Shown: positions 42,818-60,752 of the stretch, piece after piece
Layout of the letters: each line of letters opens with the position of its first letter
Position numbering within the stretch: position 1 is the first letter of the stretch
From: Patescibacteria group bacterium
GTDB lineage: Bacteria; Patescibacteriota; Microgenomatia; UBA10105; UBA927
DNA: 64,000 nt
NCBI GenBank assembly: GCA_038062895.1
Contig: JBBTWJ010000005.1
Span: forward strand, 3,715-67,714
Direction: 5' to 3'
Position numbers and translations under genes: made by a program
Notes under the pieces: model-generated
What the model saw: only the letters and a program-made list of their open reading frames with translations
Told to the model about the DNA's origin: nothing
The model's database searches: none

Positions 42818-43504
42818 TTATCGGGCCATCGTAACAGCCCAGACGAAACGGGCTCCCGCGCGCTTGAGGGTCTCGGCTGCGGCCCGCATGGTCGCGCCAG
42901 TCGTAAAGACATCGTCAAAAAGTATTACATAGCTAGATGGTTTGATGGTTGGATGGTTATAAGAAAATACATCTTTCATATTTCGAAGTCTTTCCCGCCG
43001 GTCTTTCATTTCCACCTGCGGAGTAGTCGCCTTGACGCGCCTTAGAATATCGACTCGCATGGGGATATGCAACTGATCAGCAAGTAAACGACCTAACACT
43101 TCGGCTTGATTGAATCCGCGATCGCGGAAACGAGAGGGATGGAGGGGAATGGGGATAAGAGTAGCTTCGTTAATTCGTAGTTTCGTTGCTTCGTTAAAGA
43201 ATGAAGCAGGAATAAGCGATACAAACTCTTTGACGAGGTCAGTGACGCGGCGATATTTGAGGGTTTTGACAGCCTTCTTAATGATCCCGTCGTAACGGAA
43301 TATACTCGTGAGGCCATCAAGAGAATATTTACTCTGACACCGCGGGTGGGTGAGACCCCCTATCGCCGGGCGTTCACAGATGGGGCAAATAGTTTCCGAT
43401 GCCCCGATGACTCGAACGATGGAGGCACACCGGTTACAAAAATACTTACCGAACCGCCAACATGTGAGGCAGCGTTTGGGGAAAATGAGGTCGAGGATAT
43501 GCAT
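42818..43504 (-). CDS. comF: ComF family protein (phosphoribosyltransferase domain, ComFC-like)
   Basis: N-terminal Cys4 (CLTCWRFGKYFCNRC...CPICERP) and a C-terminal PRTase motif VILFDDVFTTGATM. Start at the Met MHILDL, because the upstream ORF extension overlaps the tmRNA. Confidence 0.85.
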   Translation of the reverse strand: MHILDLIFPKRCLTCWRFGKYFCNRCASIVRVIGASETICPICERPAIGGLTHPRCQSKYSLDGLTSIFRYDGIIKKAVKTLKYRRVTDLVKEFVSLIPASFFNEATKLRINEATLIPIPLHPSRFRDRGFNQAEVLGRLLADQLHIPMRVDILRRVKATTPQVEMKDRRERLRNMKDVFSYNHPTIKPSSYVILFDDVFTTGATMRAAAETLKRAGARFVWAVTMAR

Positions 43505-43555
43505 TTTCTTAAGGTACTTCCTTGCTTCTGCAAGGAAGTACCTTGTAAAACCCTG

Positions 43556-43978
43556 TGGAGACGGAGAGGAATGACCTCTCGTCCAAGAACTTGTTCTCAA
43601 CACATCTACAGGCGTAGTCAATCAATAGTTGTCATTCCTTCCGTAACCGATTGACAGGAAAGAAGAAATCAAGACGAATTGGGCTTGACCATCCTTGGAA
43701 CGTCATACCAGGGCGGCTGCATCCCGACTGTGTTTTCACCTCTTGATAGTCACCGGGCAAACAACTCAAGAGATGGCTGTATTAGGCCGCTAACGGTAAA
43801 GCCGCGTACCTACCAGCGAACCTTCGAGCAGAAAGCGCTTGCTCTGCAGCAGCAACTTGTGCCTCAAGTTCATCTAAAGCTTTATCAGCATTTAGGTTTT
43901 TTAAGCTTGTTTTACGACCACGCTCAAGGTCGGCCTGCAGTGTAAAAGAGCAAATTCCTGTCGAATCAATACGTCCCC
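43556..43978 (-). ncRNA. ssrA: tmRNA (ssrA)
   Basis: The 5' end (minus strand) GGGGACGUAUUGAUUCGACAGGAAUUUGC resembles E. coli GGGGCUGAUUCUGGAUUCGACGGGAUUUGCG. The 3' end GGACGAGAGGUCAUUCCUCUCCGUCUCCA has a T-arm plus an acceptor strand pairing with the 5' GGGGACG. An internal tag ORF ends ...AALPLAA-UAA. Located next to smpB. Confidence 0.8.
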
Positions 43979-47176: not shown

Positions 47177-48982
47177 CTACTTTCGCTCTACATTAAACAA
47201 TGGTCCGACAATTTGAATGTTGGCCGGAGCGCGAAGGTTAAAAAAGTCTTTAAACTCGCTTCCGTCAAACGTAGAGGTCCCGGCATTCCCACTCACGCTT
47301 ACCTGTGTCACCCGCCCTCCTCCCCAGTCGACCCCGCTTGCGCGAATTTCAGAAACGGAGGTAAACGGAGTAACCCCACGGGAAGAAAGTTCCTGACGAA
47401 CTTTTTCGCGGCTCCACGAATCGGTGCCGGCAGGATTAGGTTTATCCGGCTGATAGAGGTGCTCCTTCGTGCCTCCGTCTTGACGCGCGAGAAGGATGAC
47501 ATTGACGATGTCAGCCACTTCTTCTTCTTTGAGCCATGCGGATTTGGCATACTCACCACGAAACCCCTGGGCGGCATAAAAACACGGCGAATCACGGTCG
47601 TACCCTTTGGACAACAAATCGTCAACGTTCCCCACATCCCCTGTTGTATCCCGAAGTCTTTTCGTCCAAGGCCTATGTGCGCTTCCCCACACATCATCGT
47701 TTCTAAATGTATATCCGCCAGCTGTAGACGCATACCACCCGGTGACCACTTGCCCGTCGCGCGTCATGACCTCTCCTTCGGTCTCCCGCACTGCTTTTTC
47801 CCAATCGCCTCCCTTGTTGCCGCCTTTATAAACCTGACAGGCTTGAGTCGTACAAATTTCTTTGGCGCCGTTGCCGGTATACGAGAGAGCATAGGAGCGA
47901 GCCGAGACAACTTGCGCTTTGAGCGCCGCCATGGGCCAGTCGCCGGGCATCTCATAAATACCAAGCATATACTCATCCAAAGCCATTTCGCCATAGCCCT
48001 GTACTTTAATCCGCATATTTTTATCCTTTTTCTCAAAACTAATACCGTCAAAGTATGCACGCAAAATATCCTGATAGGACTGACCTGCTTTTGCCCGGCC
48101 ATACGCTCCATACTGGCTCAATCCCACGCGGTGTGGGATGCCGAAGGTAAAAAACGCCCACGCCGGACGGAAACCGGGATCAAGCTTCCGGTCATCCGTA
48201 CAATACAGTGGTCCGGCCCCGAGACTGGTCGGCAAGCCCAAGCCTGAAAGCTTTTGCGCGAGAAAGGATTGTTGCTTAACCGTAAGACTCCCGATAATGC
48301 TCGTAAGCTTCCCCTGATACGCGCTTGCCTCGCCCACGAGCTTCCTCACAGATACAGCTCGCTTATCGGTTTCTTCTTTCAGATAGGAAAGCGAGGCTGC
48401 CTCCACTTCCAGTGTTTTTTTCCTATTTTCTAAATCTTTGACAGAGATGGCTGTCTGGGTTATGGCTTTTTTGTCTTCGTCCAGTGCCGCCATCTGATAA
48501 GCAAGGGACCGGAGGACCACCCCAATATTACTGCTCCCTAAAAACGTCACGAGTGGGTTATTGCTCTGTACGCGGATATAGAGCTGTCGGGCGCGCCGGG
48601 ATGCAAGCTCCAAAAGGCCTCCTATTTCTTTTTCTCCGGCGGCAATAGCTGCGACTTTCTTTGCTAAATCCGCTTCAAGCAGTTTAATCCTGCTTTGAAA
48701 TGCCGCGATATCCGACTCCATCTTACGAAGAGCGTCCACATGAGGTTTTTTGGCTGTCTCCATCTGATTCCAGGCTTCCTGACATTTGTCTATTTTAGCC
48801 TTGCACTCGCCGGGATTTCCACAGGTAGGATCGCACGATTGCGCAAGCACAATCGAATTATCCAATAATCCAATTATCCAATAAACCAATAATCCAATAA
48901 TCAAACCCTTCAAAACGGTTTTCATTTGTTGATGTATTCTACCATGCCCTGATCTTTCCTTTTCTTTCTCCCTTTGGTACAC
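47177..48982 (-). CDS. SpoIID/LytB-domain protein with N-terminal coiled coil
   Basis: C-terminal half has AALKAQVVSARSYAL...CTTQACQVYKG...TGWYASTAGGYT (SpoIID/LytB). N-terminal TM and coiled coil. The start may be the Met at 48925. Confidence 0.8.
   Translation of the reverse strand: MYQREKEKERSGHGRIHQQMKTVLKGLIIGLLVYWIIGLLDNSIVLAQSCDPTCGNPGECKAKIDKCQEAWNQMETAKKPHVDALRKMESDIAAFQSRIKLLEADLAKKVAAIAAGEKEIGGLLELASRRARQLYIRVQSNNPLVTFLGSSNIGVVLRSLAYQMAALDEDKKAITQTAISVKDLENRKKTLEVEAASLSYLKEETDKRAVSVRKLVGEASAYQGKLTSIIGSLTVKQQSFLAQKLSGLGLPTSLGAGPLYCTDDRKLDPGFRPAWAFFTFGIPHRVGLSQYGAYGRAKAGQSYQDILRAYFDGISFEKKDKNMRIKVQGYGEMALDEYMLGIYEMPGDWPMAALKAQVVSARSYALSYTGNGAKEICTTQACQVYKGGNKGGDWEKAVRETEGEVMTRDGQVVTGWYASTAGGYTFRNDDVWGSAHRPWTKRLRDTTGDVGNVDDLLSKGYDRDSPCFYAAQGFRGEYAKSAWLKEEEVADIVNVILLARQDGGTKEHLYQPDKPNPAGTDSWSREKVRQELSSRGVTPFTSVSEIRASGVDWGGGRVTQVSVSGNAGTSTFDGSEFKDFFNLRAPANIQIVGPLFNVERK
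48836..48905. repeat. 8-bp tandem repeat (~6 units, [at]atccaat) within the signal/TM-coding region of the SpoIID-like gene
   Basis: ttatccaataatccaattatccaataaaccaataatccaataatcaaac, encoding GLIIGLLVYWIIGLLDN. Confidence 0.7.
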
Positions 48983-49789: not shown

Positions 49790-50503
49790 TCATTTTCCAA
49801 ACCGTCGTTTTCGTTTTTGAAACTCTTCAATCGCCTCATCCAGTTTTTCCGGTGTAAATTCCGGCATAAACCACGTCGGAAAATACAGCTCGCTATACTC
49901 CGACTGCCACGGGAGAAATCCACTTAACCGCTGTTCTCCGCCGGTGCGGATGATAAGCTCGGGATCAGGAATACCATGCGTGTCTAAATACTGATGAAAA
50001 TCTTGTTCGGTCAACTTTAAACTTTTAACTTTAAACTTTAAACTTTCGCGCCATCTGTTGATGGCGCGTAGTATCTCATCTCTCCCACCGTAGTTGAGCG
50101 CAAAGACCGCCGTGATGGTCGTATTATTTTTCGTTTGGTGAGCGACGTCACTCAAGGATTTCTGGATATCAGCCGGAAACTTAGCCAGATCACCGATTGC
50201 GCGGACGCGGACGCCTTTCTCATGAAGACGGGCCCATCGGTTCTTGATCACATGACGGAATATCGTCATGATTCCGCGCACCTCTGGCGCTGCGCGGTTC
50301 CAATTCTCTGTAGAAAATGCCCAAAACGTCATATATTTGACTCCCCGCTTTGCGGCGTGTTCGATGAGGGGCTCAAGCACATCATTGGCCACCCGCCTGT
50401 GTCCTTCGAGAATCGGAAGTCCCCGTTCCTTTGCCCACCGGCGGTTGCCATCCATGATGACGGCGATATGGGTTGGAATATTCGTTGTATTTCCCATAAT
50501 CAT
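49790..50503 (-). CDS. uppS: Isoprenyl transferase (undecaprenyl diphosphate synthase, UppS)
   Basis: HIAVIMDGNRRWA...FSTENW...ELIIRTGGEQRLSGFLPWQ. Contains an in-frame heptamer repeat. Confidence 0.9.
   Translation of the reverse strand: MIMGNTTNIPTHIAVIMDGNRRWAKERGLPILEGHRRVANDVLEPLIEHAAKRGVKYMTFWAFSTENWNRAAPEVRGIMTIFRHVIKNRWARLHEKGVRVRAIGDLAKFPADIQKSLSDVAHQTKNNTTITAVFALNYGGRDEILRAINRWRESLKFKVKSLKLTEQDFHQYLDTHGIPDPELIIRTGGEQRLSGFLPWQSEYSELYFPTWFMPEFTPEKLDEAIEEFQKRKRRFGK
50013..50047. repeat. Heptanucleotide tandem repeat (aacttt[atc] x5) inside uppS CDS
   Basis: aactttaaacttttaactttaaactttaaactttc, translated as ..ESLKFKVKSLKLTE.. Confidence 0.85.
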
Positions 50504-50560
50504 TTTTTGTGTTTCCTACTCTTAATATATTTCTACACTTCTACATAGAAGTGTAGAATA

Positions 50561-51538
50561 TTAAAATAAATGATCTTTAATAAGATGCGCTCCGCGGGAG
50601 GGTTTGTTGACAATGACATCACGAATTTCGTCAATATCAGTTAATTTTGCTTTCAATGCGTCAACAGTGTTTGAATGACAAATAAGGTGAACATCCTGTC
50701 CGGTGTTAATAGTAAAATAGACTTCTATCCCTTCATCTCGCCACTTCTTAATAAGTCTTATAACCTGGAGCGTCCCCGGTGTCCAATAGATGAGTGGTGG
50801 TCTTGAAGTGAGCATCACCGCGTGCATCTCAAGAGCCTCTGCCTCAATAAGTTCTCCAAGGAGAGAAAAACGTTTTTCTGCCAACAGTTTTTTTGCCTGT
50901 ATTAATTTTTTTTTCATCCCTGCCAGACGCACCGGAAAAAAGGGGCTTGATGCAACGCGCGCCATTCCTTGAGTCGTGGGTACGGATTTTTTTCCTTCAT
51001 TAACGACTACCACGACATCAACGATATCCCACCAATCCGGCGGATAAAGGGAAACGCCGTAGGATGTATCACTCGTGTTGCCGTCGATCCACTCCACAAA
51101 CCCATCCGGAATAGATCTGCACGCAGAGCCGGAGCCCTGACGCGCGAGTATCGACAATTCTTTTTCATCAAGTTCTAACCCGGCTGCAGCAACTGCGGCA
51201 ACTGTTAGCGCCGCAAATCCAGAAGCAGAAGAGGATAATCCCGTACCAGAAGGAAAATTATTGACGGTGACGACTTTGGCGTAATCGTCCATACGCGCAA
51301 CCTTGCGAATCCGATCTAAATGCGTAATCGCTCTACTTCCATCAATTGCTTCCTGGATACCGTTAATCTCTATAACGTCCTCCTTATGCATTGGGCTGAA
51401 TTCCACGGTCGTTGTTGTCATCAAACCAGAAAGGTTCATTGATAAACTACCGTTTTCCGGCAAGCGTAATGCGTCATTTTTCTTTCCCCAATACTTGATA
51501 AATGCAATATTTGAGGGAGCAACAGCTGTAGCTTTCAT
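50561..51538 (-). CDS. mvaD: Diphosphomevalonate decarboxylase
   Basis: PSNIAFIKYWGK...GTGLSSSASGFAAL...SGSACRS. Start at the Met MKATAV, with a 4-nt ATGA overlap with the upstream gene. Confidence 0.9.
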   Translation of the reverse strand: MKATAVAPSNIAFIKYWGKKNDALRLPENGSLSMNLSGLMTTTTVEFSPMHKEDVIEINGIQEAIDGSRAITHLDRIRKVARMDDYAKVVTVNNFPSGTGLSSSASGFAALTVAAVAAAGLELDEKELSILARQGSGSACRSIPDGFVEWIDGNTSDTSYGVSLYPPDWWDIVDVVVVVNEGKKSVPTTQGMARVASSPFFPVRLAGMKKKLIQAKKLLAEKRFSLLGELIEAEALEMHAVMLTSRPPLIYWTPGTLQVIRLIKKWRDEGIEVYFTINTGQDVHLICHSNTVDALKAKLTDIDEIRDVIVNKPSRGAHLIKDHLF

Positions 51539-52983
51539 GATAAAATTCCTGCTTTTTTGAGCGAAACTTCTGCACATCTCGTAAGCACAATTTCCTTCGT
51601 TGCCACTTTAAATGGTATCTCCCGGGGAGAAAAAAATTCCACACGATCTACTTCCTCATGATTTATCCGAAACGGGCCATTGGATACCCCTCTATATAGC
51701 GCTGCCATTTCCGACTCCTGGTTATCTTGTACGACAAACCTGGAAAGCGGGGTAACTGGCATATCGACTCCCAGTTCTTCCTGAAGCTCGCGGTGAAGCG
51801 TCTCTTCGTACTCCTGACCTTTCCGCACATGGCCCGCGCAGGATATACCCCAAAGTCCCGCGCCCGTATCTTTAGAACTGCTCCTTTTTTGGAGAAGCAC
51901 ATTCCCTTTTTTATCAAAAATAACGGCTCCTACCGTGCGATGGATAAGTGACTTGTCATGATGGCAGTCATAGCGGCTGCGAAACCCAAGCACTCTGTCA
52001 TCTTTATCGACGACGATAAATTCTTCTTTCTGGTCATCGGTTGTCTCGATGCGGACACCTTGAGCGTTTGGGTGGACATCAATCGCTTCACCACCCGCAT
52101 CCGCTATCGCTTTTTGTATGGCTTCTCTCTTATCGCTCGGCCCAAGGGCGATCATACAATCTCCGCCCCCTGCACCGGAGAGCTTGGCGCCCCAAGCTCC
52201 TGCCTTTTTTGCCGCACTAATCATCGCTTCTAACTTTTCGCTGCTCACTCCCAAATCCCGCAGGTACTCATGATTAAAATCCATGAGTCTCCCCACCCGT
52301 TCCCAATCCCCTTCCAACATCCGCATTTTCGCTTCCTCAACCAATTTGGTTATCGCCTGAAAAATCCGCTCCACTTTCTCCGGATTCTTTTCCTTCTTTT
52401 CGGCCACTTGTTTTATAAGCATCGTCGTATCCGCTTTCACTCCCGTGTATCCAACAATGAGTGGCATTTCTGATACAGTTTGATCGTTTGATTCCCGGTA
52501 TTGAGCGTGGATTTCTTCAATAACTTTGCCGCCGGCAATGAAATAGAGGGTTCCCCCATACACGGCCGCTGCCACATCAAATCCGCTCCCCATCCCCTGC
52601 ACGGCTAACACCGTTTTATATGAAAGGTCAAAAAGCTCGCGCGACGTCACTTCTTTTTTGAAAAGCAAGGCAAGCGCCTTTACTACCCCCACCGTTACCG
52701 AGGCAGATGATCCGAAACCATATTTGCCCGAAAAGTTACTTTGTGTTTTGATCCGGAACCCAACCGATGGAATACCCCACCCTTTTTGTGCCTGCCGGAC
52801 CGCTTCATCCACAAAGCGGGTATCACCCGCTTGGGGCGCATCTACCACGACCTTACTTTCCTCAATTTTTTCCACTCCAACCGTAAGCCGCTCATCAATC
52901 GCGGTAACCAAAGAAGGATAGCCGTACACGACGGCGTGTTCACCCATTACCATTAATTTCCCTGGCGCGGAAATTAAAACCAT
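51535..52983 (-). CDS. Fusion protein: GHMP kinase (mevalonate/phosphomevalonate kinase-like) + isopentenyl-diphosphate isomerase type 1 (Nudix)
   Basis: N-terminus APGKLMVMGEHAVVYG..GFGSSAS (GHMP). The C-terminal ~160 aa has HRTVGAVIFDKKGNVLLQKRSSSKDTGAGLWGISCAGH...ELQEELGV, the IDI-1 pattern. Confidence 0.85.
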   Translation of the reverse strand: MVLISAPGKLMVMGEHAVVYGYPSLVTAIDERLTVGVEKIEESKVVVDAPQAGDTRFVDEAVRQAQKGWGIPSVGFRIKTQSNFSGKYGFGSSASVTVGVVKALALLFKKEVTSRELFDLSYKTVLAVQGMGSGFDVAAAVYGGTLYFIAGGKVIEEIHAQYRESNDQTVSEMPLIVGYTGVKADTTMLIKQVAEKKEKNPEKVERIFQAITKLVEEAKMRMLEGDWERVGRLMDFNHEYLRDLGVSSEKLEAMISAAKKAGAWGAKLSGAGGGDCMIALGPSDKREAIQKAIADAGGEAIDVHPNAQGVRIETTDDQKEEFIVVDKDDRVLGFRSRYDCHHDKSLIHRTVGAVIFDKKGNVLLQKRSSSKDTGAGLWGISCAGHVRKGQEYEETLHRELQEELGVDMPVTPLSRFVVQDNQESEMAALYRGVSNGPFRINHEEVDRVEFFSPREIPFKVATKEIVLTRCAEVSLKKAGILS

Positions 52984-53059
52984 AAATTGTTATTGGTTAG
53001 TTAGTTAATTAGTTACTTAGCTATAATTTATCTAACTAACAAAGTAACGAAATAACGAA
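52984..53059. repeat. Intergenic inverted-repeat spacer (module gttagttag/gttacttag/taactaac)
   Basis: ttggttagttagttaattagttacttagctataatttatctaactaacaaagtaacgaaataacgaactaac. Confidence 0.7.
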
Positions 53060-54031
53060 CTAACTTTTCTTCTCCAACCGTATCCCTTCTTCTCCTAATC
53101 TGATCGGTTGAATGGAAAATCCATATGGCTTGCTTATGGCAGATATCTTATCCGGGTCTTGGGTATAGCATAATAAAAATCCCACACCCTCCGCTTTTCC
53201 GCCGCCACCGAGGATCTTCGCTGCACCTCCGGCCTTTTCAATTTTCCTGATGAGCGGAATGACTTTCCTGCTTACCACTTCCATTCCCTCCAAGCTTCGC
53301 TGTCCGGCGGTCATTGCATCCATCAATTCTTTCTCATCCCCCTCCTTGATCGCCACCGCGATATTTCGAGTTTGTATTTCATTCTCATCAAATAATCTAT
53401 TCATTCTTGACGCCTGACGCCTGACGCCTGACGCTACCAAAGAAATCATCTCCCCTGTCGTCTCCTTCGGTTTCCCGGTATTGATGAGAAAAAAATGATT
53501 GAGACTTTCGGGTATCTTGAATGGCAACTGCCAGATGCTTTTGAGAAATTCAAGTTCCTTCCGAAACCAAATAAGTCCGCCCATGGTCACCGTCGTATTA
53601 TCTCCGCCGGAAGGATTCCCGTGCATTTTTTTCTCGACTTCATAGGCAATCTGGTTAATCGCAGCCGGATTCCAAACTTTTTTAAGATAATAGGTTAGGG
53701 CTCCGACGACTCCAACGGCTACTGCGGCCGATGAGCCCAAATGATAACCGGCAGGAATATCGGAAACAACCGTAATCTTCATCGGTGGAAGATTTGCAAG
53801 TTTATACTCCCGCTTGACCACCTCAACTACATGACGGATATAGTCGGACGGCTCACTGGAGTCGATAAGTATTTTTTCTCTGGATCCCCGCGTTCGCGGG
53901 GATGACAAAGAAAGCGACTCGACAGTCACACGCAAACGGAGGTTGATGGCGGCAAGAAGCGCGGGCTTACCATAAACAACCGCGTGTTCGCCCATTAAAT
54001 GCACTTTACCGGGAACGCTTACTGTAACCAT
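53060..54031 (-). CDS. mvk: Mevalonate kinase (GHMP kinase)
   Basis: VPGKVHLMGEHAVVYGKPALLAAI...GYHLGSSAAVAVG...KILGGGG. Contains a translated palindromic element and a heptamer repeat. Confidence 0.85.
   Translation of the reverse strand: MVTVSVPGKVHLMGEHAVVYGKPALLAAINLRLRVTVESLSLSSPRTRGSREKILIDSSEPSDYIRHVVEVVKREYKLANLPPMKITVVSDIPAGYHLGSSAAVAVGVVGALTYYLKKVWNPAAINQIAYEVEKKMHGNPSGGDNTTVTMGGLIWFRKELEFLKSIWQLPFKIPESLNHFFLINTGKPKETTGEMISLVASGVRRQASRMNRLFDENEIQTRNIAVAIKEGDEKELMDAMTAGQRSLEGMEVVSRKVIPLIRKIEKAGGAAKILGGGGKAEGVGFLLCYTQDPDKISAISKPYGFSIQPIRLGEEGIRLEKKS
53399..53428. repeat. Heptanucleotide tandem repeat ([ct]tgacgc x4) inside mvk CDS
   Basis: ttgacgcctgacgcctgacgcctgacgc, translated as ASGVRRQASR. 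Confidence 0.8.
53878..53908. repeat. Palindromic element family A' inserted in-frame in mvk (translated LSSPRTRGSRE)
   Basis: ctctggatccccgcgttcgcggggatgacaa, with arms GGATCCCCGCG/CGCGGGGATC. Confidence 0.8.
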
Positions 54032-54116
54032 AAATAGTTAGTTAGCAACGCTAGTTACTTCGTTACTTAGAAAAAATTTCTACCAAGTAACTAAATAACG
54101 CGCGTTGCTCGTGTTG
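54032..54116. repeat. Intergenic inverted-repeat spacer; left arm is the reverse complement of a segment in 54432..54508
   Basis: agttagcaacgctagttacttcgttacttag ... ctaagtaac...gttgctaac. Confidence 0.7.
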
Positions 54117-54431
54117 CTAACACGGTTTCACTTTTATCCCATACGGAATCACGCCCTCATTGTTTGGCTTAATGGTGCGGCGGACAACAGTAATAACCTT
54201 CATTCCCATAAGCTTTTCCTTCCCAGCCTGTCCGCCGGCTGGCGGATCTACAAGTTGTGCGGTTATTCTTTCTCCCCCACTAAGCTCGACAAGGACCACG
54301 GGATACGGAGCCTGATCGGAAAAATCAGCCGGAGGAACACGCACCATGGTCCACGAGATTATTTTCCCGATTTTCCCGAGCATTTTACCAACGTTCTTTT
54401 GATTTCTCCAAAGCTTGACCGGACTAAGCAT
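54117..54431 (-). CDS. DUF35 OB-fold/Zn-ribbon protein (thiolase/HMG-CoA synthase scaffold, archaeal type)
   Basis: 104 aa (...WTMVRVPPADFSDQAPYPVVLVELSGGERITAQLVD...) sitting between the thiolase and kinase genes. Confidence 0.7.
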   Translation of the reverse strand: MLSPVKLWRNQKNVGKMLGKIGKIISWTMVRVPPADFSDQAPYPVVLVELSGGERITAQLVDPPAGGQAGKEKLMGMKVITVVRRTIKPNNEGVIPYGIKVKPC

Positions 54432-54508
54432 AATTGTTACTTGGTTAGTTGGTTACTTAGTTATTAGTAAAAAATTTTTCTAAGTAACGAAGTAACTAGC
54501 GTTGCTAA
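54432..54508. repeat. Intergenic inverted-repeat spacer
   Basis: ttacttggttagttggttacttagttattag...ctaagtaacgaagtaactagcgttgctaactaac. Confidence 0.7.
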
Positions 54509-55663
54509 CTAACTTTTAAGTATATGAGCCACCGCGGTCGCTCCGCTTCCTCCGACGTTATGGGCAAGTCCCACGCGCGCGCCTTTCACTTGTCTGGCTC
54601 CTGCCACCCCCCGAAGTTGCGTCACCAATTCAACAACCTGCTTGACGCCCGTCGCGCCAATCGGATGACCACAGCCTTTCAGTCCCCCAGACGGATTGAC
54701 GACTAATTTTTTCGCTTTCCCCAGCGTCACTTCTCCCCGTGATATCGCTCGAGCTGCCATTCCCTTGCGATAAAATCCTATATCTTCCAGAGCTAAAATT
54801 TCTGCAATCGTAAAACAATCATGCACCTCGGCGATATCAATATCGCGAGGCCCGACGCCGGCAATCGCATAAGCGCGACGCGCAGCTTCTTGAGAAGCCG
54901 CAAGCTCGGTCAAGCTCTCTCTTTGGGCAAGTCCCAATGTGTCTGTTGCCACTGCGCTTGCGACAATTTCAATCTCCTTTTCCCTTTTTCCGTTTACCTT
55001 TTTCCTTGAAAGTATGAGTGCTGCTGCTCCGTCTGAAATCGGTGAGCAATCTAATAACTTCAGGGGGTCGGCGACAGCGTGGCTTCTTAGAACCTGCTCG
55101 ATGGTGAGAAGACTTCGAAATTGTGCGTTAGGGTTTAAACTCGCATGAAAATGATTTTTTACGGCAACTGCCGCCAGATCTTCTTGGGTCGTCCCATACT
55201 CCTGCATATGAATACGGGCAAGAATGGCGTAGAGCCCCGGAAACGTACAACCAGATGAACGCTCTTGAGCAGTCCCCGCGCCCATGAGCGCTGTCGCCAC
55301 ATCTTCTGGCTTGTGATCCGTCATCTTTTCGACCCCAAGTACGGCAACCGTCTCATACTGACCGGAGGCGATGGCGTTAAATGCGTTGTGAATAGCCAGG
55401 CCTCCCGACGCGCACGCGCCTTCAACCTTAAAAGCAGCAGCGTGAGTAAATCCCAGTTCCTCTGCAAAAAATGCCCCCAAATGCTCCTGTCCACCCAACA
55501 TGCCGGAGAGCATATTGCCTACGAATAACGCCTGAATGTCCCGCGGCTTCATAGCAGCATCTTTCAGCGCGCCGTCCATGGCCTCATGGGCGAGCGTCCT
55601 GGGAGAGACGCTCCAAAGCTCACCGAATTTAGTTGTAGAAGCACCGATGATAGATACATTCAT
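54509..55663 (-). CDS. Acetyl-CoA C-acetyltransferase (archaeal-type thiolase)
   Basis: MNVSIIGASTTKFGEL...ACASGGLAI.., a thiolase fold without the bacterial PhaA-type N-terminus. Confidence 0.9.
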   Translation of the reverse strand: MNVSIIGASTTKFGELWSVSPRTLAHEAMDGALKDAAMKPRDIQALFVGNMLSGMLGGQEHLGAFFAEELGFTHAAAFKVEGACASGGLAIHNAFNAIASGQYETVAVLGVEKMTDHKPEDVATALMGAGTAQERSSGCTFPGLYAILARIHMQEYGTTQEDLAAVAVKNHFHASLNPNAQFRSLLTIEQVLRSHAVADPLKLLDCSPISDGAAALILSRKKVNGKREKEIEIVASAVATDTLGLAQRESLTELAASQEAARRAYAIAGVGPRDIDIAEVHDCFTIAEILALEDIGFYRKGMAARAISRGEVTLGKAKKLVVNPSGGLKGCGHPIGATGVKQVVELVTQLRGVAGARQVKGARVGLAHNVGGSGATAVAHILKS

Positions 55664-55758
55664 AGTTGCTTGGTTAGTTGGTTACTTGGTTACTTAGAAA
55701 GAACTAAGTTGCTAAGTAACAGGTGTTGCTAACTAACAATCTAGCGAATTACCATTCG
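55664..55758. repeat. Intergenic inverted-repeat spacer
   Basis: ttgcttggttagttggttacttggttacttag...ctaagttgctaagtaacaggtgttgctaactaac, followed by a second palindrome ctagcgaattaccattcgctag. Confidence 0.7.
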
Positions 55759-56862
55759 CTAGATTTTGTGTGTCTGTTTCAAATATTGCACGTAATCAAT
55801 GTACGTTTTTTTCGCTATTTGCTGCTGCACTAAACTTTGACTTTTGACTTTTGACTTTTGACTTTTGACGAGCGCTTCTGTCGTCTCCCACACAAACCCG
55901 TCGCTGCCGGCTCCCGATCCGTAGGACACCATAAAAATCTTCTCTCCGGGTTTGGCGATATCCAATACCGCGGCAAGCCCCATCATGGTAGAAGCTGAAT
56001 AGGGATTTCCAATGGTGTCCACGACAAGTGAGGGCAGTATCTGATCAGGCGTAAACCCTAAGCGCTTCGCTGCGTCCCGGGGAAATCTCCCGTTGGGCAT
56101 ATGAAAAACACAATAGTCAATATCAGAAGGTTTACACTGAACCTTTTCAAAAAGGCGACGTGCGGCCCCTATAACATGCGCAAAATATGCCGGCTCTCCG
56201 GTGAACCTCCCTGCATGAGATGGATAGGCCACACCATCACGTCGCCAAAAGTCCGGCGTGTCCGAAGAATAGGAAGTGTAGGCAAGAAGTTTTGCAACGA
56301 TAGGTTTAGTTGTTCCTTGGGGATCAATTTTCTTGCGGCCGCTTTTGTTTTGATCCTCATCTCCTTTTCCCATTAAAAACGCGGCTCCGGCGGCGGCGGA
56401 CGTGTATTCCAACACGTCGTGGGGTTTGCTTTGGGCCGTATCAGCACCCACGGCCATACCATAGCGCATATGACCGGATCCCACGAGCCCTGCGATTGCC
56501 TGCATCCCCGCGGTCCCCGCTTTACAGGCAAACTCAAAATCTGCCGCCAGATAATTATTTCCTACGCCAAGAAGTTCTCCGACAATCGTGGACGTTGGAT
56601 TAACCGCATACGGATGACTTTCTGATCCCACAAATAGAGCTTCTATAGACTGGGGACTTAGCCCCTCTACTCCGCTCAAGGCGCTTCGGGCGGCTTCAAG
56701 GGCTATCGTCACTGCGTCCTCGTCTGGAGCCTGTACGGATTTTTCCGTAACGAGAAGCGATGAAGTGACGTCCTGTCCGTCCTTTTTCCACGCAGCAGCG
56801 ATATCGCTTAGACGGATGCGGTACTGCGGAATATAGGTGCCGTATGAAACAATTCCTACCAT
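55759..56862 (-). CDS. mvaS: Hydroxymethylglutaryl-CoA synthase (archaeal type)
   Basis: MVGIVSYGTYIPQYRI...AGTAGMQA (catalytic Cys region). A heptamer repeat lies near the C-terminus. Confidence 0.9.
   Translation of the reverse strand: MVGIVSYGTYIPQYRIRLSDIAAAWKKDGQDVTSSLLVTEKSVQAPDEDAVTIALEAARSALSGVEGLSPQSIEALFVGSESHPYAVNPTSTIVGELLGVGNNYLAADFEFACKAGTAGMQAIAGLVGSGHMRYGMAVGADTAQSKPHDVLEYTSAAAGAAFLMGKGDEDQNKSGRKKIDPQGTTKPIVAKLLAYTSYSSDTPDFWRRDGVAYPSHAGRFTGEPAYFAHVIGAARRLFEKVQCKPSDIDYCVFHMPNGRFPRDAAKRLGFTPDQILPSLVVDTIGNPYSASTMMGLAAVLDIAKPGEKIFMVSYGSGAGSDGFVWETTEALVKSQKSKVKSQSLVQQQIAKKTYIDYVQYLKQTHKI
55834..55868. repeat. Heptanucleotide tandem repeat ([ct]tttgac x5) inside HMG-CoA synthase CDS
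   Basis: ctttgacttttgacttttgacttttgacttttgac, translated as KSQKSKVKSQS. Confidence 0.85.
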
Positions 56863-56983
56863 ATATTTAAATCCAAAATCCTAATTTCTAAATTCTAAAC
56901 AATATCAAAATTCAAATATCCAATGCTCTAAACTGTTTTGTATTTTGAATTTTGGTCATTTGAATTTATTTTGAATTTAGGAT

Positions 56984-58147
56984 TTAGTGCTTAGAGCTTC
57001 CGCGCGCAAGACGTTGATGCGCGCGGGCTAAGGTTCCCTCCGACAACGACGCAAGAAGTGAAATTTCACCAGCGAGTACGGCGGCTGCAATAATCTCCGC
57101 AAGCCGTTGAGCGTTTTTCCCATTATCCCCACCGGCAACGCCAAGAATGTTCAAGGCTTCTTTTTGTGTCCCAAGCCCTGTCCCGCCACCAACCGTCCCG
57201 ACCATAAGATCCGGGAGACATACATTGATATATACATCGTGACCATCAACTACTTCCATCGTCGTTATCCCCACGCTACACTCTCCCACGTGTCCGAGGT
57301 CTTGCCCTGTCGCCAAAAACATCGCCGCGATAACGTTGGCGTATTGGGCGTTAAATCCCATGGATCCGCTTATCGCGCTTCCGATCATACATTTAGCGAG
57401 CCATACTTCATAAACCTTTTGTGCCGTTGTTTTAAGAACATTTTTAAGAACACTCGCAGGAATAGTCACTTCTGCCCACACCTTGATCCCGCGATTTTCT
57501 ATGAAGTTAAGCCACGCGGATTTTTTGTCTATGTCAAAATTCCCGGCAAGTGAAAGGCATTTCACCCCGGTTTCCTCTTCGATATATGAGGCAAGAGCGT
57601 CGCTTGCTATTGTTGCCATGTTCATGCCCATAGCATCCTCGGTGTCAAACGTAAATCGCACAAACCGATATCTCCCAACCCCACGGGTCAACAACTTCTT
57701 TAACGTTATATGACGTGATGTTTTGGCGGCTACCTCCTGTAGATCATTCAAGTGCTCATTCAAAAATTTATATAAACGGTCGCTCTGTGCAAGATCTTTC
57801 ACTTTAAATACCGGACCCCGTGTCGCTCCCACCCGATGACTATCAACCGTCGACCCACCGCTTTCGGTGATCGCTTTACACCCCCGGCTCACGGAAGCGA
57901 CGAGAGCGCCTTCGGTCGTGGCGAGGGGAATATACCCACTGAAAACTTTAAACTTTAAACTTTTAACTTTGAGGGGGCCGGCGATACCTAGTGGGACTTG
58001 TGCCGCTCCGACCATGTTTTCGCAGTTTTTCGTTGATGCAACGGACTGGTCCAGAGTAAAGCTGCCGATGTTGATTAAATCAACCTTCAACTGTTTCTCC
58101 AGGGCGCTTCTGCGGTCCGTAACTGTTTTGTAATCACGAAGATTCAT
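56984..58147 (-). CDS. mvaA: HMG-CoA reductase
   Basis: ENMVGAAQVPLGIAGPL...ATTEGALVAS...DAMGMNM...GTVGGGT. Start at the Met MNLRDYK (ATGA overlap with the upstream Yip1 gene). Confidence 0.9.
   Translation of the reverse strand: MNLRDYKTVTDRRSALEKQLKVDLINIGSFTLDQSVASTKNCENMVGAAQVPLGIAGPLKVKSLKFKVFSGYIPLATTEGALVASVSRGCKAITESGGSTVDSHRVGATRGPVFKVKDLAQSDRLYKFLNEHLNDLQEVAAKTSRHITLKKLLTRGVGRYRFVRFTFDTEDAMGMNMATIASDALASYIEEETGVKCLSLAGNFDIDKKSAWLNFIENRGIKVWAEVTIPASVLKNVLKTTAQKVYEVWLAKCMIGSAISGSMGFNAQYANVIAAMFLATGQDLGHVGECSVGITTMEVVDGHDVYINVCLPDLMVGTVGGGTGLGTQKEALNILGVAGGDNGKNAQRLAEIIAAAVLAGEISLLASLSEGTLARAHQRLARGSSKH
57943..57970. repeat. Heptanucleotide tandem repeat (aacttt[atg] x4) inside HMG-CoA reductase CDS
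   Basis: aactttaaactttaaacttttaactttg, translated as LKVKSLKFKV between GPL and ATTEG. Confidence 0.85.
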
Positions 58148-59697: not shown

Positions 59698-60648
59698 TCA
59701 TGCTTGGCGGTTGAGCGCAAAACTTGCAAAGTCAGTAAGAAGCGCTCCCATGCCGACAGACGCATGAATCGCTTGGGTCGCCTGAGCCGTCTGCTTTCCA
59801 AGCTTCTTGGCCTGTGTGCGGAAAGCGTCCTCACCAACTTCACCATCAAGGAAATCATCGCGCAGTTGATATGCCTCTCCCACCGCCAGGCCGTACGGTA
59901 CAAACGATTCGAGCGTTTTCTCATCCGACCCGGCGATGCTCGCTCCGATCTGAAGAGGCCGGACGACGCTGTACCAAGCAGTTTTATAACGGTTAATCGT
60001 TGCCCTGTCGGCGCTGGGCAATCCAGCGGAGGCCAACACATCCAGGCTCTGACCCAAAATCACCTCTTGTTTCATTTTCTGATAATTTACCCACACGCTC
60101 GACCAATTCCGGGAATCCTTTGGATTCCCGGAATTAACGGCCCGGTTCATCAGTTCATCCGCCCACGCCAATGCGAGGTCGCCGGCGAGGATAGCCATGC
60201 TCTCGCCGAAACGCGAACTCCCCATCCGATTCCGGGAATCCAAAGGATTCCCGGAATCTAGCGCAACCTGCTTAAACTTTTCATGAACAGTGGGACTGCC
60301 GCGGCGCATCGCATCTTCGTCAATAATATCGTCATGGATGAGAGCAAACGACTGAAATAGTTCAATTCCCATCATGGCAGAGAGCACGTTGTCATCCCCG
60401 ACCCGATCGGGGATCCAGGTATTGCGCTGGATTCCCGCGTGCGCGGGAATGACAGACTGGTGCCCCAGCCATACCAGAAACGCCCGGGTCCGCTTGCCGC
60501 CGCGGGAGGTGAGATCGGCTATTTGGTCAACGAGTTGTATGGTCTGCGGATGGATGTTTTTCGCTTCACTGTGTTTGGTCGTAAAAAAGTGTTGAAGTTC
60601 ATGATCGACGTTCTTCTTGACATCATGAAGGGCTGTAGTGAGATCCAT
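59698..60648 (-). CDS. Polyprenyl diphosphate synthase (FPP/GGPP synthase family) carrying three translated palindromic insertions
   Basis: FARM motif LIHDDIIDEDAMRRG and SARM motif GEAYQLRDDFLD. Start at the Met MDLTTALHD; the longer ORF extension is encoded by an intergenic repeat copy. Confidence 0.9.
   Translation of the reverse strand: MDLTTALHDVKKNVDHELQHFFTTKHSEAKNIHPQTIQLVDQIADLTSRGGKRTRAFLVWLGHQSVIPAHAGIQRNTWIPDRVGDDNVLSAMMGIELFQSFALIHDDIIDEDAMRRGSPTVHEKFKQVALDSGNPLDSRNRMGSSRFGESMAILAGDLALAWADELMNRAVNSGNPKDSRNWSSVWVNYQKMKQEVILGQSLDVLASAGLPSADRATINRYKTAWYSVVRPLQIGASIAGSDEKTLESFVPYGLAVGEAYQLRDDFLDGEVGEDAFRTQAKKLGKQTAQATQAIHASVGMGALLTDFASFALNRQA
60105..60142. repeat. Palindromic element family B (14-bp arms) inside polyprenyl synthase CDS, translated NSGNPKDSRNW
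   Basis: aattccgggaatcc-ttt-ggattcccggaatt. Confidence 0.85.
60229..60262. repeat. Palindromic element family B, second copy, inside polyprenyl synthase CDS, translated DSGNPLDSRNR
   Basis: gattccgggaatcc-aaa-ggattcccggaatc. Confidence 0.85.
60427..60454. repeat. Palindromic element family A inside polyprenyl synthase CDS, translated SVIPAHAGIQ
   Basis: ctggattcccgcgtgcgcgggaatgaca. Confidence 0.85.
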
Positions 60649-60709: not shown

Positions 60710-60724
60710 AAACACATTTGAACT

Positions 60725-60752
60725 CTGGATTCCCGCCGTCGCGGGAATGACA
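60725..60752. repeat. Palindromic element family A, intergenic copy
   Basis: ctggattcccgccgtcgcgggaatgaca. Confidence 0.8.

Follow-up and report, generated by a model that had tools for sequence, protein, structure and literature searches.

The window analysed here is a stretch of 64,000 nt (64 kb) from a groundwater Patescibacteria genome. It contains a mevalonate/isoprenoid operon, recognised from ORFs, Pfam and called genes, as well as a polyprenyl synthase gene belonging to the same co-directional gene string. Each operon gene was identified by its ORF and Pfam, and the gene order is kept in the Gottesmanbacteria loci L009–L065.

49790–58147, minus strand: mevalonate/isoprenoid operon
56984–58147, minus strand: HMG-CoA reductase (HMGR)
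55759–56862, minus strand: HMG-CoA synthase (HMGCS)
54509–55663, minus strand: thiolase
54117–54431, minus strand: DUF35/OB
53060–54031, minus strand: mvk
51535–52983, minus strand: GHMP kinase–Nudix fusion (PMK/IDI)
50561–51538, minus strand: MVD
49790–50497, minus strand: uppS
59698–60648, minus strand: polyprenyl synthase

Four heptanucleotide arrays of 4–5 units each (28–35 nt) are embedded, without breaking the frame, within uppS, mvk, HMGCS and HMGR, and a fifth, decayed array is found in the thiolase gene. The arrays were called with TRF, and their coordinates refer to the plus strand, while the host genes are on the minus strand.

50013–50046, minus strand: uppS array, AACTTTA x4.9, 92% pure
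53407–53434, minus strand: mvk array, TGACGCC x3.9, perfect
55834–55869, minus strand: HMGCS array, TTTGACT x4.9, perfect
57943–57970, minus strand: HMGR array, AAACTTT x4.0, 95% pure
54975–55007, minus strand: degenerate thiolase array, TCCTTTT x4.7, 76%; AAAAAGG-like in the sense orientation, residues ~219–230

A preliminary description of this DNA had listed the four arrays; all are present, and Pfam backs its gene identities, although its mvk coordinates (53399–53428) were about 7 nt too far left. It was also right that a change by a single 7-nt unit would shift the frame and, judging from the translations, that the present copy numbers keep all four genes in frame. In the sense orientation, the uppS array consists of two AAAGTTT units, AAAGTTA, AAAGTTT and a partial AAAGTT, encoding SLKFKVKSLKL (residues 152–162 of the 235-aa protein). 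The mvk array is (GCGTCAG)x3 GCGTCAA, encoding ASGVRRQASRM (residues 200–210); the HMGCS array is (GTCAAAA)x4 GTCAAAGT, encoding VKSQKSKVKSQS (residues 332–343); and the HMGR array is AAAGTTA (AAAGTTT)x3, encoding KVKSLKFKVFS (residues 60–70). Translation of the arrays yields lysine-rich peptides with a 7-residue period. The uppS and HMGR arrays each have one unit that departs from the consensus, AAAGTTA; as read from the sequence, this change does away with the in-frame TAA of a pure AAAGTTT array. Three perfect period-7 arrays of at least three units were observed, compared to none in 300 first-order Markov simulations of 64 kb, and no other period from 5 to 10 reached at least three perfect units in the window; chance would not be expected to produce any of the arrays. 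Within the operon span, the density of period-7 arrays is 9-fold that of the flanks.

Arrays also form the arms of hairpins in the spacers between the operon genes, and a palindromic mini-element is inserted in mvk.

56863–56983, minus strand: HMGR–HMGCS spacer hairpin with 7-nt-periodic array arms (TRF 56868–56899, 56936–56954; inverted repeat I1; fold −22.8 kcal/mol, z = −3.0)
55664–55758, minus strand: HMGCS–thiolase spacer hairpin with octamer arms of the GTTACTTG type (TRF 55665–55695; fold z = −2.0)
54432–54508, minus strand: thiolase–DUF35 spacer, octamer-array hairpin (TRF 54436–54463; inverted repeat I7; fold z = −2.5)
54032–54116, minus strand: DUF35–mvk spacer, octamer-array hairpin (inverted repeat I3; fold −30.6 kcal/mol, z = −5.4)
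52984–53059, minus strand: mvk–PMK/IDI spacer, octamer-array hairpin (TRF 52992–53020, 53037–53064; inverted repeats I6, I9; z = −2.6)
53882–53906, minus strand: palindromic mini-element GTCATCCCCGCGAACGCGGGGATCC, in-frame insert in mvk (SSPRTRGS)

The hairpin architecture is kept between species while the sequence turns over. An Rfam search matched no family, the DUF35–mvk spacer giving only a sub-threshold chance match. The same mini-element occupies the same mvk site in L023, and this second mvk insertion site carries heptamer arrays in L051 and L056. The polyprenyl synthase gene, where inverted repeat I2 was detected, has three insertion hot spots, with palindromic elements in the window (60390–60453, 60229–60257 and 60106–60134) and heptamer arrays in relatives.

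The four arrays belong to a large family of heptanucleotide arrays of ~30–34 nt and 4–5 units, documented for Gottesmanbacteria and for a single AlaRS of Parcubacteria type. In ~1 Mb of these loci, period 7 accounts for 55 of the 69 tandem arrays that have ≥3.5 copies and ≥85% purity. Five protein sites of the operon recurrently bear arrays in many of 57 related Gottesmanbacteria operons, with lineage-specific units; the site of the decayed thiolase array holds pure arrays in L032, L014, L065, L010 and L046. Orthologous array sites persist across Gottesmanbacteria and Daviesbacteria, and the unit changes in register: in HMGR all four units differ in the same way between the window (AAAGTTT) and L009 (AAAGTCW), with C for T. 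The 97 arrays comprise ~70 distinct units. Different sites of one genome resemble each other in unit more than sites of different genomes do, and related genomes reuse a given unit at more than one site and in their spacer hairpins; a 29-nt GCGTCAG array is identical in mvk (the window and L012) and thiolase (L010). The length distribution of perfect arrays has two modes, one of them a sharp peak at 30–34 nt, which recurs in a broader version in non-coding arrays; a further 103 arrays, whose units the search had not targeted, have their mode at 31–33 nt. Small inserts break the arrays in mvk and polyprenyl synthase of L011 and in several HMGR and AlaRS homologs.

Outside the operon, arrays occur in AlaRS, LigA, PheT, LepA, LeuRS, RecG, MurB, IscU, MreB and other genes of metagenome contigs, named here from conserved motifs in the translations rather than by a family search; among these hosts only that of AlaRS was placed, among Parcubacteria. 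The array (AAGTCAA)4AAGT has fixed ends, and across AlaRS, LigA, LepA, LeuRS, MreB and other metagenome genes each of the three reading frames is used; in a pattern-selected sample of this single unit the start phase is identical in 34 of 38 unrelated ORFs. The GTCAAAA unit of the HMGCS array was found in more than 120 metagenome stretches, and its arrays within ORFs are always sense-oriented. In Parcubacteria relatives, AlaRS proteins from scattered lineages carry differing inserts with a 7-residue period at one beta-turn.

At the protein level, the array sites are conserved, indel-tolerant positions, and segment lengths there are near those of PDB homologs. The preliminary description had asked whether the encoded peptides map to surface loops. 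They do so in the AF2 model of UppS, which places the array at the end of helix 138–153 and in coil 154–163, the internal block of lowest pLDDT (66), but in HMGR the array is predicted to form a beta-hairpin (strand 54–63, turn, strand 69–75; pLDDT 81–94). The proposed expansion of the HMGR loop relative to class I enzymes holds only in part, being a single residue compared to the archaeal class I structure 6HR7, while the excess over the short-loop class of close relatives is five residues. UppS homologs fall into loop classes of 31–32 aa and 39 aa, the array-bearing ones being 7 aa (21 nt) longer than the commonest class, and the short forms of HMGCS have 21 nt less; these classes support a step of +21 nt, that is, three units. 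For HMGR and mvk, the step between length classes is 15 nt instead of 21.

If the arrays were contingency loci, as the preliminary description proposed, one-unit slippage would toggle uppS, mvk, HMGCS or HMGR in subpopulations and thereby vary isoprenoid and lipid-carrier synthesis. The pure tracts and a unit length not divisible by three are consistent with this, in-register turnover points to slippage or conversion on evolutionary time scales, and two low-coverage contigs terminate at the uppS array (50003 and 50018). However, the tracts have only 4–5 units, the array sequences agree in all ten contigs from this population, without any copy-number difference, no out-of-frame array was seen among ~65 orthologous ones in the 57 related operons, and a collection of 15 billion proteins contained no length or frameshift alleles, each array-bearing protein being the sole member of its own 90% cluster. 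Moreover, each host is a core biosynthesis gene present in a single copy, and arrays of this kind also lie in AlaRS, LeuRS, LigA, MreB and others that could not plausibly be switched off. Nor is hypermutability supported. The uppS array is identical at 34 of 34 nt in L218, a separate species with 85% protein identity, and the longest exact matches to L012 are the mvk, HMGCS and HMGR arrays, with 63 nt spanning the mvk array; the HMGCS array lies in exact matches of 49 nt to L009 and 30 nt to L012. In shared arrays silent sites are conserved in 41 of 41 codons (four comparisons), as opposed to 39–54% elsewhere in the same genes, where silent sites are near saturation; conserved residues keep the same codon in the mvk (10/10) and HMGCS (12/12) arrays, and in mvk the freeze reaches ~18 nt into the flank. 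Phase variation is thus highly improbable. The preliminary description is borne out in part, since its other option, selfish repeats, stays live.

The arrays are always in frame, unchanged between species, and recurrent at the same sites and in other essential genes, which argues for tolerated selfish or structural inserts rather than switches. On balance, we lean towards stably inherited, selection-filtered mini-satellite inserts, derived by slippage or from tiny mobile DNA and carried as passengers, selfish or structurally co-opted; how they are generated and that they lack a function are what we infer. A 7-nt unit may be amplified, by slipped-strand mispairing or template switching, in in-frame steps (+21 nt, three units), or a ready-made array of ~32 nt may be inserted. 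Selection would retain only stop-free, frame-preserving versions; the AAAGTTA variant that removes TAA and the sense orientation of GTCAAAA support such a filter. Afterwards the array would be homogenised, a change in one unit either spreading to all or being erased, and hence lineages would come to differ in unit but keep a locked length; the HMGR difference between the window and L009 supports concerted change. Simple slippage leaves unexplained the 30–34 nt length mode, the fixed ends of the AAGTCAA array, the frozen silent sites, the operon enrichment, the within-genome sharing of units and the 15-nt steps in HMGR and mvk.

Several of these features would follow if the ~32-nt array (e.g. 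AAGTCAAAAGTCAAAAGTCAAAAGTCAAAAGT) were itself a tiny mobile element, a discrete unit copied to new sites or overwriting existing arrays by a copy-paste or templated mechanism, whose in-frame survivors pile up in permissive loops of essential genes, like Rickettsia palindromic elements. The defined start phase and ends in unrelated ORFs and all frames, the length mode of the unselected arrays, the GCGTCAG array common to mvk and thiolase, the units shared by sites and spacer hairpins, the within-genome similarity, and the mini-elements that use array sites and sometimes interrupt arrays all point this way. Nevertheless, no terminal inverted repeats, target-site duplication or associated transposase were seen, sites retained across Gottesmanbacteria and Daviesbacteria with in-register unit change fit evolution in situ, unit diversity is high, and the phase evidence comes from one unit in a pattern-selected sample; we consider such an element unlikely. 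The frozen silent sites, including the mvk flank, suggest nucleotide-level selection, very frequent homogenisation or recombination. If selection is responsible, the arrays and array-armed hairpins could be cis-acting signals on the operon mRNA or DNA that affect processing, stability or translation pausing or bind a repeat-recognising factor, and the peptide would be a by-product. Besides the silent sites, the interspecies exact matches, the invariant uppS array, the 9-fold enrichment and the hairpin in every spacer, with its architecture kept, favour such a role. Units, however, vary by site and species, which makes one sequence-specific partner improbable; of 43 coding arrays, only 4 find a complementary 11-mer within their own locus, the same arrays also turn up in other lineages in housekeeping genes that are unrelated, Rfam gave no family, and concerted evolution, together with each unit position being read in all three codon positions, could slow visible divergence. 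A nucleic-acid function is accordingly quite doubtful.

Like the contingency repeats of Haemophilus, Neisseria and Campylobacter, the passenger inserts favoured here are coding tandem repeats with a unit not divisible by three, for which slipped-strand mispairing is expected, but they are short (4–5 units), invariant in the available assemblies, conserved across species, and always in frame, and their hosts are genes of core biosynthesis and housekeeping, not surface or restriction-modification genes. In Nostoc, Elhai et al. reportedly described in 2008 small dispersed repeats of 21–27 nt, putatively mobile, nested in tandem heptamer repeats. Heptamer arrays interrupted by small inserts are seen here as well, although in another phylum, and here it is the mostly coding array, and not just an insert nested in it, that acts like a dispersed unit with a set length. 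With stable hairpins in almost all of its spacers, this polycistronic operon resembles those with REP/BIME-type intercistronic hairpins, but the arms here are tandem 7–8-nt arrays, and architecture rather than sequence is conserved between species. Many bacteria have an excess of heptameric repeats, and polymerase slippage has been proposed to produce it (PMC4692102). Those of cyanobacteria and Xanthomonas (SSRs/STRR; Mazel 1990, Mrazek 2007, cited in PMC4692102) share the 7-nt unit and the period-7 excess and, as outlined in that source, are often intergenic, sometimes in inverted pairs able to form stem-loops. According to the same outline they are mostly intergenic and vary in length between close relatives, whereas the arrays here are in frame in essential genes, at orthologous sites, with the length locked at ~32 nt and the unit turning over. 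Rickettsia palindromic elements (Ogata 2000, 2002, in PMC10969869), as presented there, are likewise short in-frame inserts at fold-compatible positions of many unrelated metabolic and housekeeping genes; they are, however, palindromes of ~100–150 bp with conserved family sequences, in contrast to ~32-nt direct heptamer arrays of many units, and the true palindromic mini-elements of this operon occupy the insertion sites of the arrays.

The mevalonate/isoprenoid operon, delineated by ORFs and Pfam, comprises co-directional genes for a class I HMG-CoA reductase (HMGR), an archaeal-type HMG-CoA synthase (HMGCS), a thiolase, a DUF35/OB protein, mevalonate kinase (mvk), a GHMP kinase-Nudix fusion, diphosphomevalonate decarboxylase (MVD) and UppS. 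The contig that contains the window is 224,654 bp long and was obtained from groundwater of the Hainich observatory (well H41); judging by its relatives, it belongs to Candidatus Gottesmanbacteria (Microgenomates, Patescibacteria/CPR). The mevalonate pathway is already known from most Microgenomates (PMC6107057). The operon and the arrays within its genes are as follows, with coordinates on the plus strand:

49790-58147, minus strand: mevalonate/isoprenoid operon
50013-50046, minus-strand gene uppS: array, AACTTTA x4.9
51535-52983, minus strand: 482-aa protein with fused GHMP-kinase (phosphomevalonate-kinase-like) and Nudix (type 1 IDI-like) domains
53407-53434, minus-strand gene mvk: array, TGACGCC x3.9
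54975-55007, minus-strand thiolase gene: fifth, decayed array
55834-55869, minus-strand HMGCS gene: array, TTTGACT x4.9
57943-57970, minus-strand HMGR gene: array, AAACTTT x4.0

The preliminary description listed four heptanucleotide arrays, and both Tandem Repeats Finder (TRF) and direct reading recovered all of them, the mvk coordinates alone being shifted by approximately 7 nt. As it had stated, all four lie in frame inside coding sequences, with a unit of seven nucleotides, which is not divisible by three. Among periods 5-10, period 7 alone forms perfect arrays of at least three units in the 64 kb. A chance origin is ruled out, as a comparable array appeared in none of 300 Markov simulations, and so is an assembly artefact, since the arrays recur, always in frame, in independent assemblies, samples and species. 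An in-frame TAA would arise in a pure AAAGTTT array, and one AAAGTTA unit in both uppS and HMGR removes that stop. Programmed -1 ribosomal frameshifting on the in-frame U UUA AAG of the AAAGTTT arrays was rejected, as TAA is met immediately in the -1 frame; no split-frame orthologs supporting it were found among the related operons.

Several other features of the operon region were observed. The fusion gene and the start of MVD share 4 nt, and in several relatives the tblastn match of the fusion protein is limited to the GHMP-kinase part. The operon is flanked on both sides by opposite-strand clusters encoding small membrane proteins that resemble T4SS pilins (PF18895; 48993-49721 and 60805-63177). 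Compared with the archaeal enzyme 6ESQ, HMGCS has a Lys/Gly-rich insertion of ~17 residues (GDEDQNKSGRKKIDPQGTTKP) at residues ~165-190 (~56290-56370), which is no recognisable array.

We compared the window with 57 Gottesmanbacteria-type operons (approximately 1 Mb together with the window) by exact-match and local alignments. Arrays recur in many species at five orthologous sites, UppS ~150-165, Mvk ~200-210, thiolase ~220-230, HMGCS ~330-343 and HMGR ~60-70, while their units are lineage-specific, the uppS site being occupied, for example, by AAAGTTT, AAATCCC, AAATTTC, AAATGGC or CATCAAG. When this 1 Mb of loci is filtered for arrays of 3.5 or more copies and a purity of 85% or more, 55 of 69 have period 7, and the density of period-7 arrays is 20.3 per 100 kb in the operon span versus 2.2 per 100 kb in the flanks (approximately nine-fold).

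The suggestion that the arrays are hypermutable did not hold; instead they are conserved, forming the longest exact matches between species. In the related locus L012 the longest operon match, of 63 nt, spans the mvk array and its flanks; it is followed by two of 30 nt, at the HMGCS array and at a palindrome upstream of uppS, and by one of 28 nt at the HMGR array. In another related locus, L009, the longest is the HMGCS array (49 nt). At identical residues the same codon is used in 39-54% of cases outside the arrays, versus 10/10, 10/10, 9/9 and 12/12 inside the shared ones. The copy number is unchanged in species at 75-85% protein identity, and the closest UppS relative, with 85% identity and a different gene order, matches the 34-nt array base for base, the AAAGTTA unit included. 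At the same time, the HMGR array of L009 has C in place of the window's T in all four units, in register, which is concerted evolution or replacement of the whole array. A 29-nt GCGTCAG array is identical in the window's mvk and in the thiolase of a related locus, L010.

The locus with this closest UppS relative (L218, SRR22388279, 1-7155) has the gene order Yip1, a 370-aa protein, an amino-acid-kinase-fold protein, a 234-aa protein, Nudix, then UppS. The amino-acid-kinase-fold protein is possibly an isopentenyl phosphate kinase, and the gene string suggests that a sister lineage has a variant form of the late mevalonate pathway.

If the arrays were contingency loci, as had also been proposed, copy-number polymorphism and OFF alleles would be expected. 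Exact-protein look-ups yielded ten contigs, one of them the source contig, which represent eight or more samples; these population contigs are 99.97-100% identical to the window, with zero indels at the arrays in the assemblies. In the 90%-identity clusters of 15 billion sequences each of the five proteins is the sole member, and the nearest homologs are 79% (HMGR) and 85% (UppS) identical. Strain-level length variants were found neither by the exact-protein look-ups, where every contig recovered was identical, nor in the cluster listing. No frameshift was seen at the array sites among approximately 65 orthologous arrays from 57 related loci, and the only three split genes in related operons (HMGR in L036, mvk in L020, PMK in L019) are all interrupted away from the arrays. 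Thus, with neither polymorphic copy number in the ten contigs and protein clusters nor OFF alleles among the orthologous arrays, phase variation is disfavoured by every test that could be made.

Two low-coverage contigs terminate at the margin of the uppS array (positions 50003 and 50018). Together with the ends at 53907, 54065, 56938 (twice) and 48821, the independent low-coverage contig ends are clustered at arrays, palindromes and spacer hairpins, which could reflect assembly-graph effects or real heterogeneity.

In the AlphaFold model of HMGR (pLDDT 83.5) a beta-hairpin is predicted with confidence for the array residues (strand 54-63, turn, strand 69-75), and in that of UppS (pLDDT 86.4) the array takes in the last part of helix 138-153 together with the coil after it, the lowest-confidence internal block. 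Both sites are indel-variable in alignments: close homologs have HMGR loops of 9 or 14 residues and UppS segments of 31-32 or 39 residues (+7 aa, that is, +21 nt). The arrays are not pure insertions relative to the canonical enzymes, as the HMGR, UppS and HMGCS segments differ from PDB homologs by -1 to +4 residues (the comparison covers these three enzymes, the mvk alignment having stopped short of the array). Hence the arrays occupy native-length, sequence-tolerant segments.

The phenomenon is not exclusive to the operon. Scanning metagenome contigs for (GTCAAAA)x3.9 gave at least 120 stretches, of which 80 loci were analysed. In 51 of them the array lies inside an ORF of at least 240 nt, in the GTCAAAA sense every time, and no MVA gene is among these ORFs. 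The sequence (AAGTCAA)4AAGT occurs in at least 38 different large ORFs, in three frames. Judging by conserved motifs in the translations rather than by family search, the hosts include genes for AlaRS, LigA, PheT, LepA, LeuRS, RecG, PolA exonuclease and MurB, as well as IscU, IscS, MreB, GltX, UvrC, PriA and DapF. The AlaRS host has its relatives among Nealsonbacteria and other Patescibacteria. In most of these relatives the array site is a short beta-turn, and scattered lineages have differing inserts there with a periodicity of seven residues. Period 7 constitutes 189 of approximately 430 TRF rows in the metagenome loci. Some GTCAAAA matches are not Patescibacteria-like, among them high-GC contigs and one shared-flank family. 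A longer mobile element was sought through shared flanks and rejected, as these were seen in orthologous pairs only, apart from the one non-Patescibacteria-like family, with the left flank ACTAGTACCGCTNCGCGG. A literature search, incomplete in coverage, yielded no description of such arrays in Patescibacteria.

The lengths of perfect arrays are distributed bimodally, with the second mode at 30-34 nt and hardly any longer arrays. A mode of 31-33 nt was also observed for 103 arrays of other units from unrelated metagenome loci. About half of the arrays are coding, and 72% of these fall within 30-34 nt; the non-coding ones have a median of 32 nt as well, with a wider spread. The ends tend to be fixed: among the matches listed, AAGTCAA/GTCAAAA arrays in large ORFs start with AA(A)(A)GTCAAAA in 34 of 38 cases and finish with ...GTCAAAA or ...GTCAAAAGT, all three reading frames being used. 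Units are also shared within genomes, as pairs from different sites with at most one mismatch make up 17.6% within a genome versus 5.4% between genomes (permutation p < 0.0002; p = 0.01 in the site-stratified permutation). When the window's clade is left out, the values are 5 of 14 within a genome versus 4.2% between genomes.

Arrays outside genes are mostly situated in the operon spacers, often as inverted pairs forming hairpins with stable predicted folds; in the window the hairpin arms are built of octamers. Coding arrays and spacer-hairpin arms of the same or sister genomes have units in common. No known RNA families were found in the operon or its spacers. Long-range RNA pairing of the coding arrays was rejected, as the locus contains a reverse-complement 11-mer for only 4 of 43 arrays and same-strand copies for 13 of 43. 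Further short repeats of the window are palindromes and octamer arrays:

42936-42958 and 43164-43195, inside the minus-strand ORF 42818-43621: octamer arrays of the GATGGTTG and GCTTCGTT types
48851-48902, in the minus-strand gene 47177-48925: octamer array AATCCAAT x6.5
50530-50559, between MVD and uppS: 30-nt near-perfect palindrome TTCTACACTTCTATGTAGAAGTGTAGAA
53882-53906, 60390-60453 and ~60722-60750: palindromic mini-element GTCATYCCCGCG..CGCGGGRATCC
60106-60134 and 60229-60257, in frame in polyprenyl synthase: two perfect copies of the 29-nt self-palindrome ATTCCGGGAATCCWWWGGATTCCCGGAAT

Permissive sites are filled by palindromic mini-elements in some species and by arrays in others; polyprenyl synthase has three such shared sites, the others being the uppS site and mvk ~residue 40. 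Small inserts break up some of the arrays. The GTCATYCCCGCG..CGCGGGRATCC element is in frame in mvk and polyprenyl synthase, with a third copy upstream of the latter and no other occurrence in the 64 kb; the related locus L023 has it at the same mvk site. The ATTCCGGGAATCCWWWGGATTCCCGGAAT copies encode GNPLDSRN and GNPKDSRN, and relatives have heptamer arrays at those sites. The TTCTACACTTCTATGTAGAAGTGTAGAA palindrome folds with z = -4.5, is exact in L012 (15151-15180) and could be an operator, a terminator or an internal promoter element.

The AATCCAAT array encodes the signal-peptide/TM segment (GLIIGLLVYWIIGLLD) of a SpoIID-domain protein, and relatives have octamer arrays of other units at this site (L012 16795-16932, L028 16492-16535, L218 6070-6117). 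In the comparison contigs L003/L094 (ERZ1292628) a rare SNP-level difference at ~47561-48925 of the window coincides with SpoIID being called as two ORFs (165 and 409 aa, versus a single 582 aa), which may be a nonsense polymorphism. With the GATGGTTG and GCTTCGTT arrays lying in yet another ORF, in-frame short-period arrays are not limited here to isoprenoid genes.

Taken together, the data fit stably inherited mini-satellite inserts filtered by selection. Such arrays would originate by slippage or template switching, or arrive as ready-made ~32-nt arrays, and would then be kept homogeneous and tolerated at fold-permissive positions and in spacers. If they are only tolerated inserts, annotating heptamer tracts in Patescibacteria genes as phase-variable would be unwarranted, many lysine-rich 'insertions' of their proteins would have a DNA-level rather than adaptive origin, and the arrays would flag fold-permissive sites in enzymes.

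Plain slippage, though, leaves the fixed length, fixed ends, frozen silent sites, within-genome unit sharing and operon enrichment unexplained, as well as the in-register unit turnover and the co-location with palindromic mini-elements. Hence two other, more novel readings may be considered. The arrays may be tiny mobile or templated elements; they would then be the smallest DNA of this sort, written or copied into spacers and essential genes with their ends defined, and a dedicated process would uphold their homogeneity. Alternatively, they may be RNA or DNA signals that act in cis and are maintained by selection on the nucleotide sequence. That the ~32-nt arrays represent undescribed tiny dispersed elements of Patescibacteria of either kind, with the Gottesmanbacteria isoprenoid operon as a hot spot, seems to us rather unlikely, if conceivable. 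Should the features that slippage does not explain hold genome-wide, some process not yet recognised would be implied: either a mobile or templated element of very small size, or a mechanism that homogenises repeats within the essential genes of a major bacterial radiation about which little is understood.

With contingency loci the window's arrays share a period-7 tandem repeat in a coding sequence, the unit not being divisible by three. However, contingency loci are long tracts of many units, with high slippage rates, in surface or host-interaction genes, whereas the window's arrays have 4-5 units and reside in mevalonate-pathway enzymes, and their equivalents are also found in aminoacyl-tRNA synthetases, ligase and MreB. 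Small dispersed repeats of Nostoc are another analogue. Heptameric SSRs/STRRs (PMC4692102) are likewise head-to-tail heptamers with period 7 over-represented, but they vary in length among close relatives and are mostly intergenic, whereas the arrays described here have the 30-34 nt mode and are about half coding. Rickettsia palindromic elements (PMC10969869) are short elements residing in frame in many unrelated genes, similarly to (AAGTCAA)4AAGT, and their insertion is compatible with the fold, as at the HMGR beta-hairpin and the low-pLDDT loop of UppS; however, they are palindromes of ~100-150 bp with a family consensus, whereas the arrays are ~32-nt direct repeats with ~70 units.
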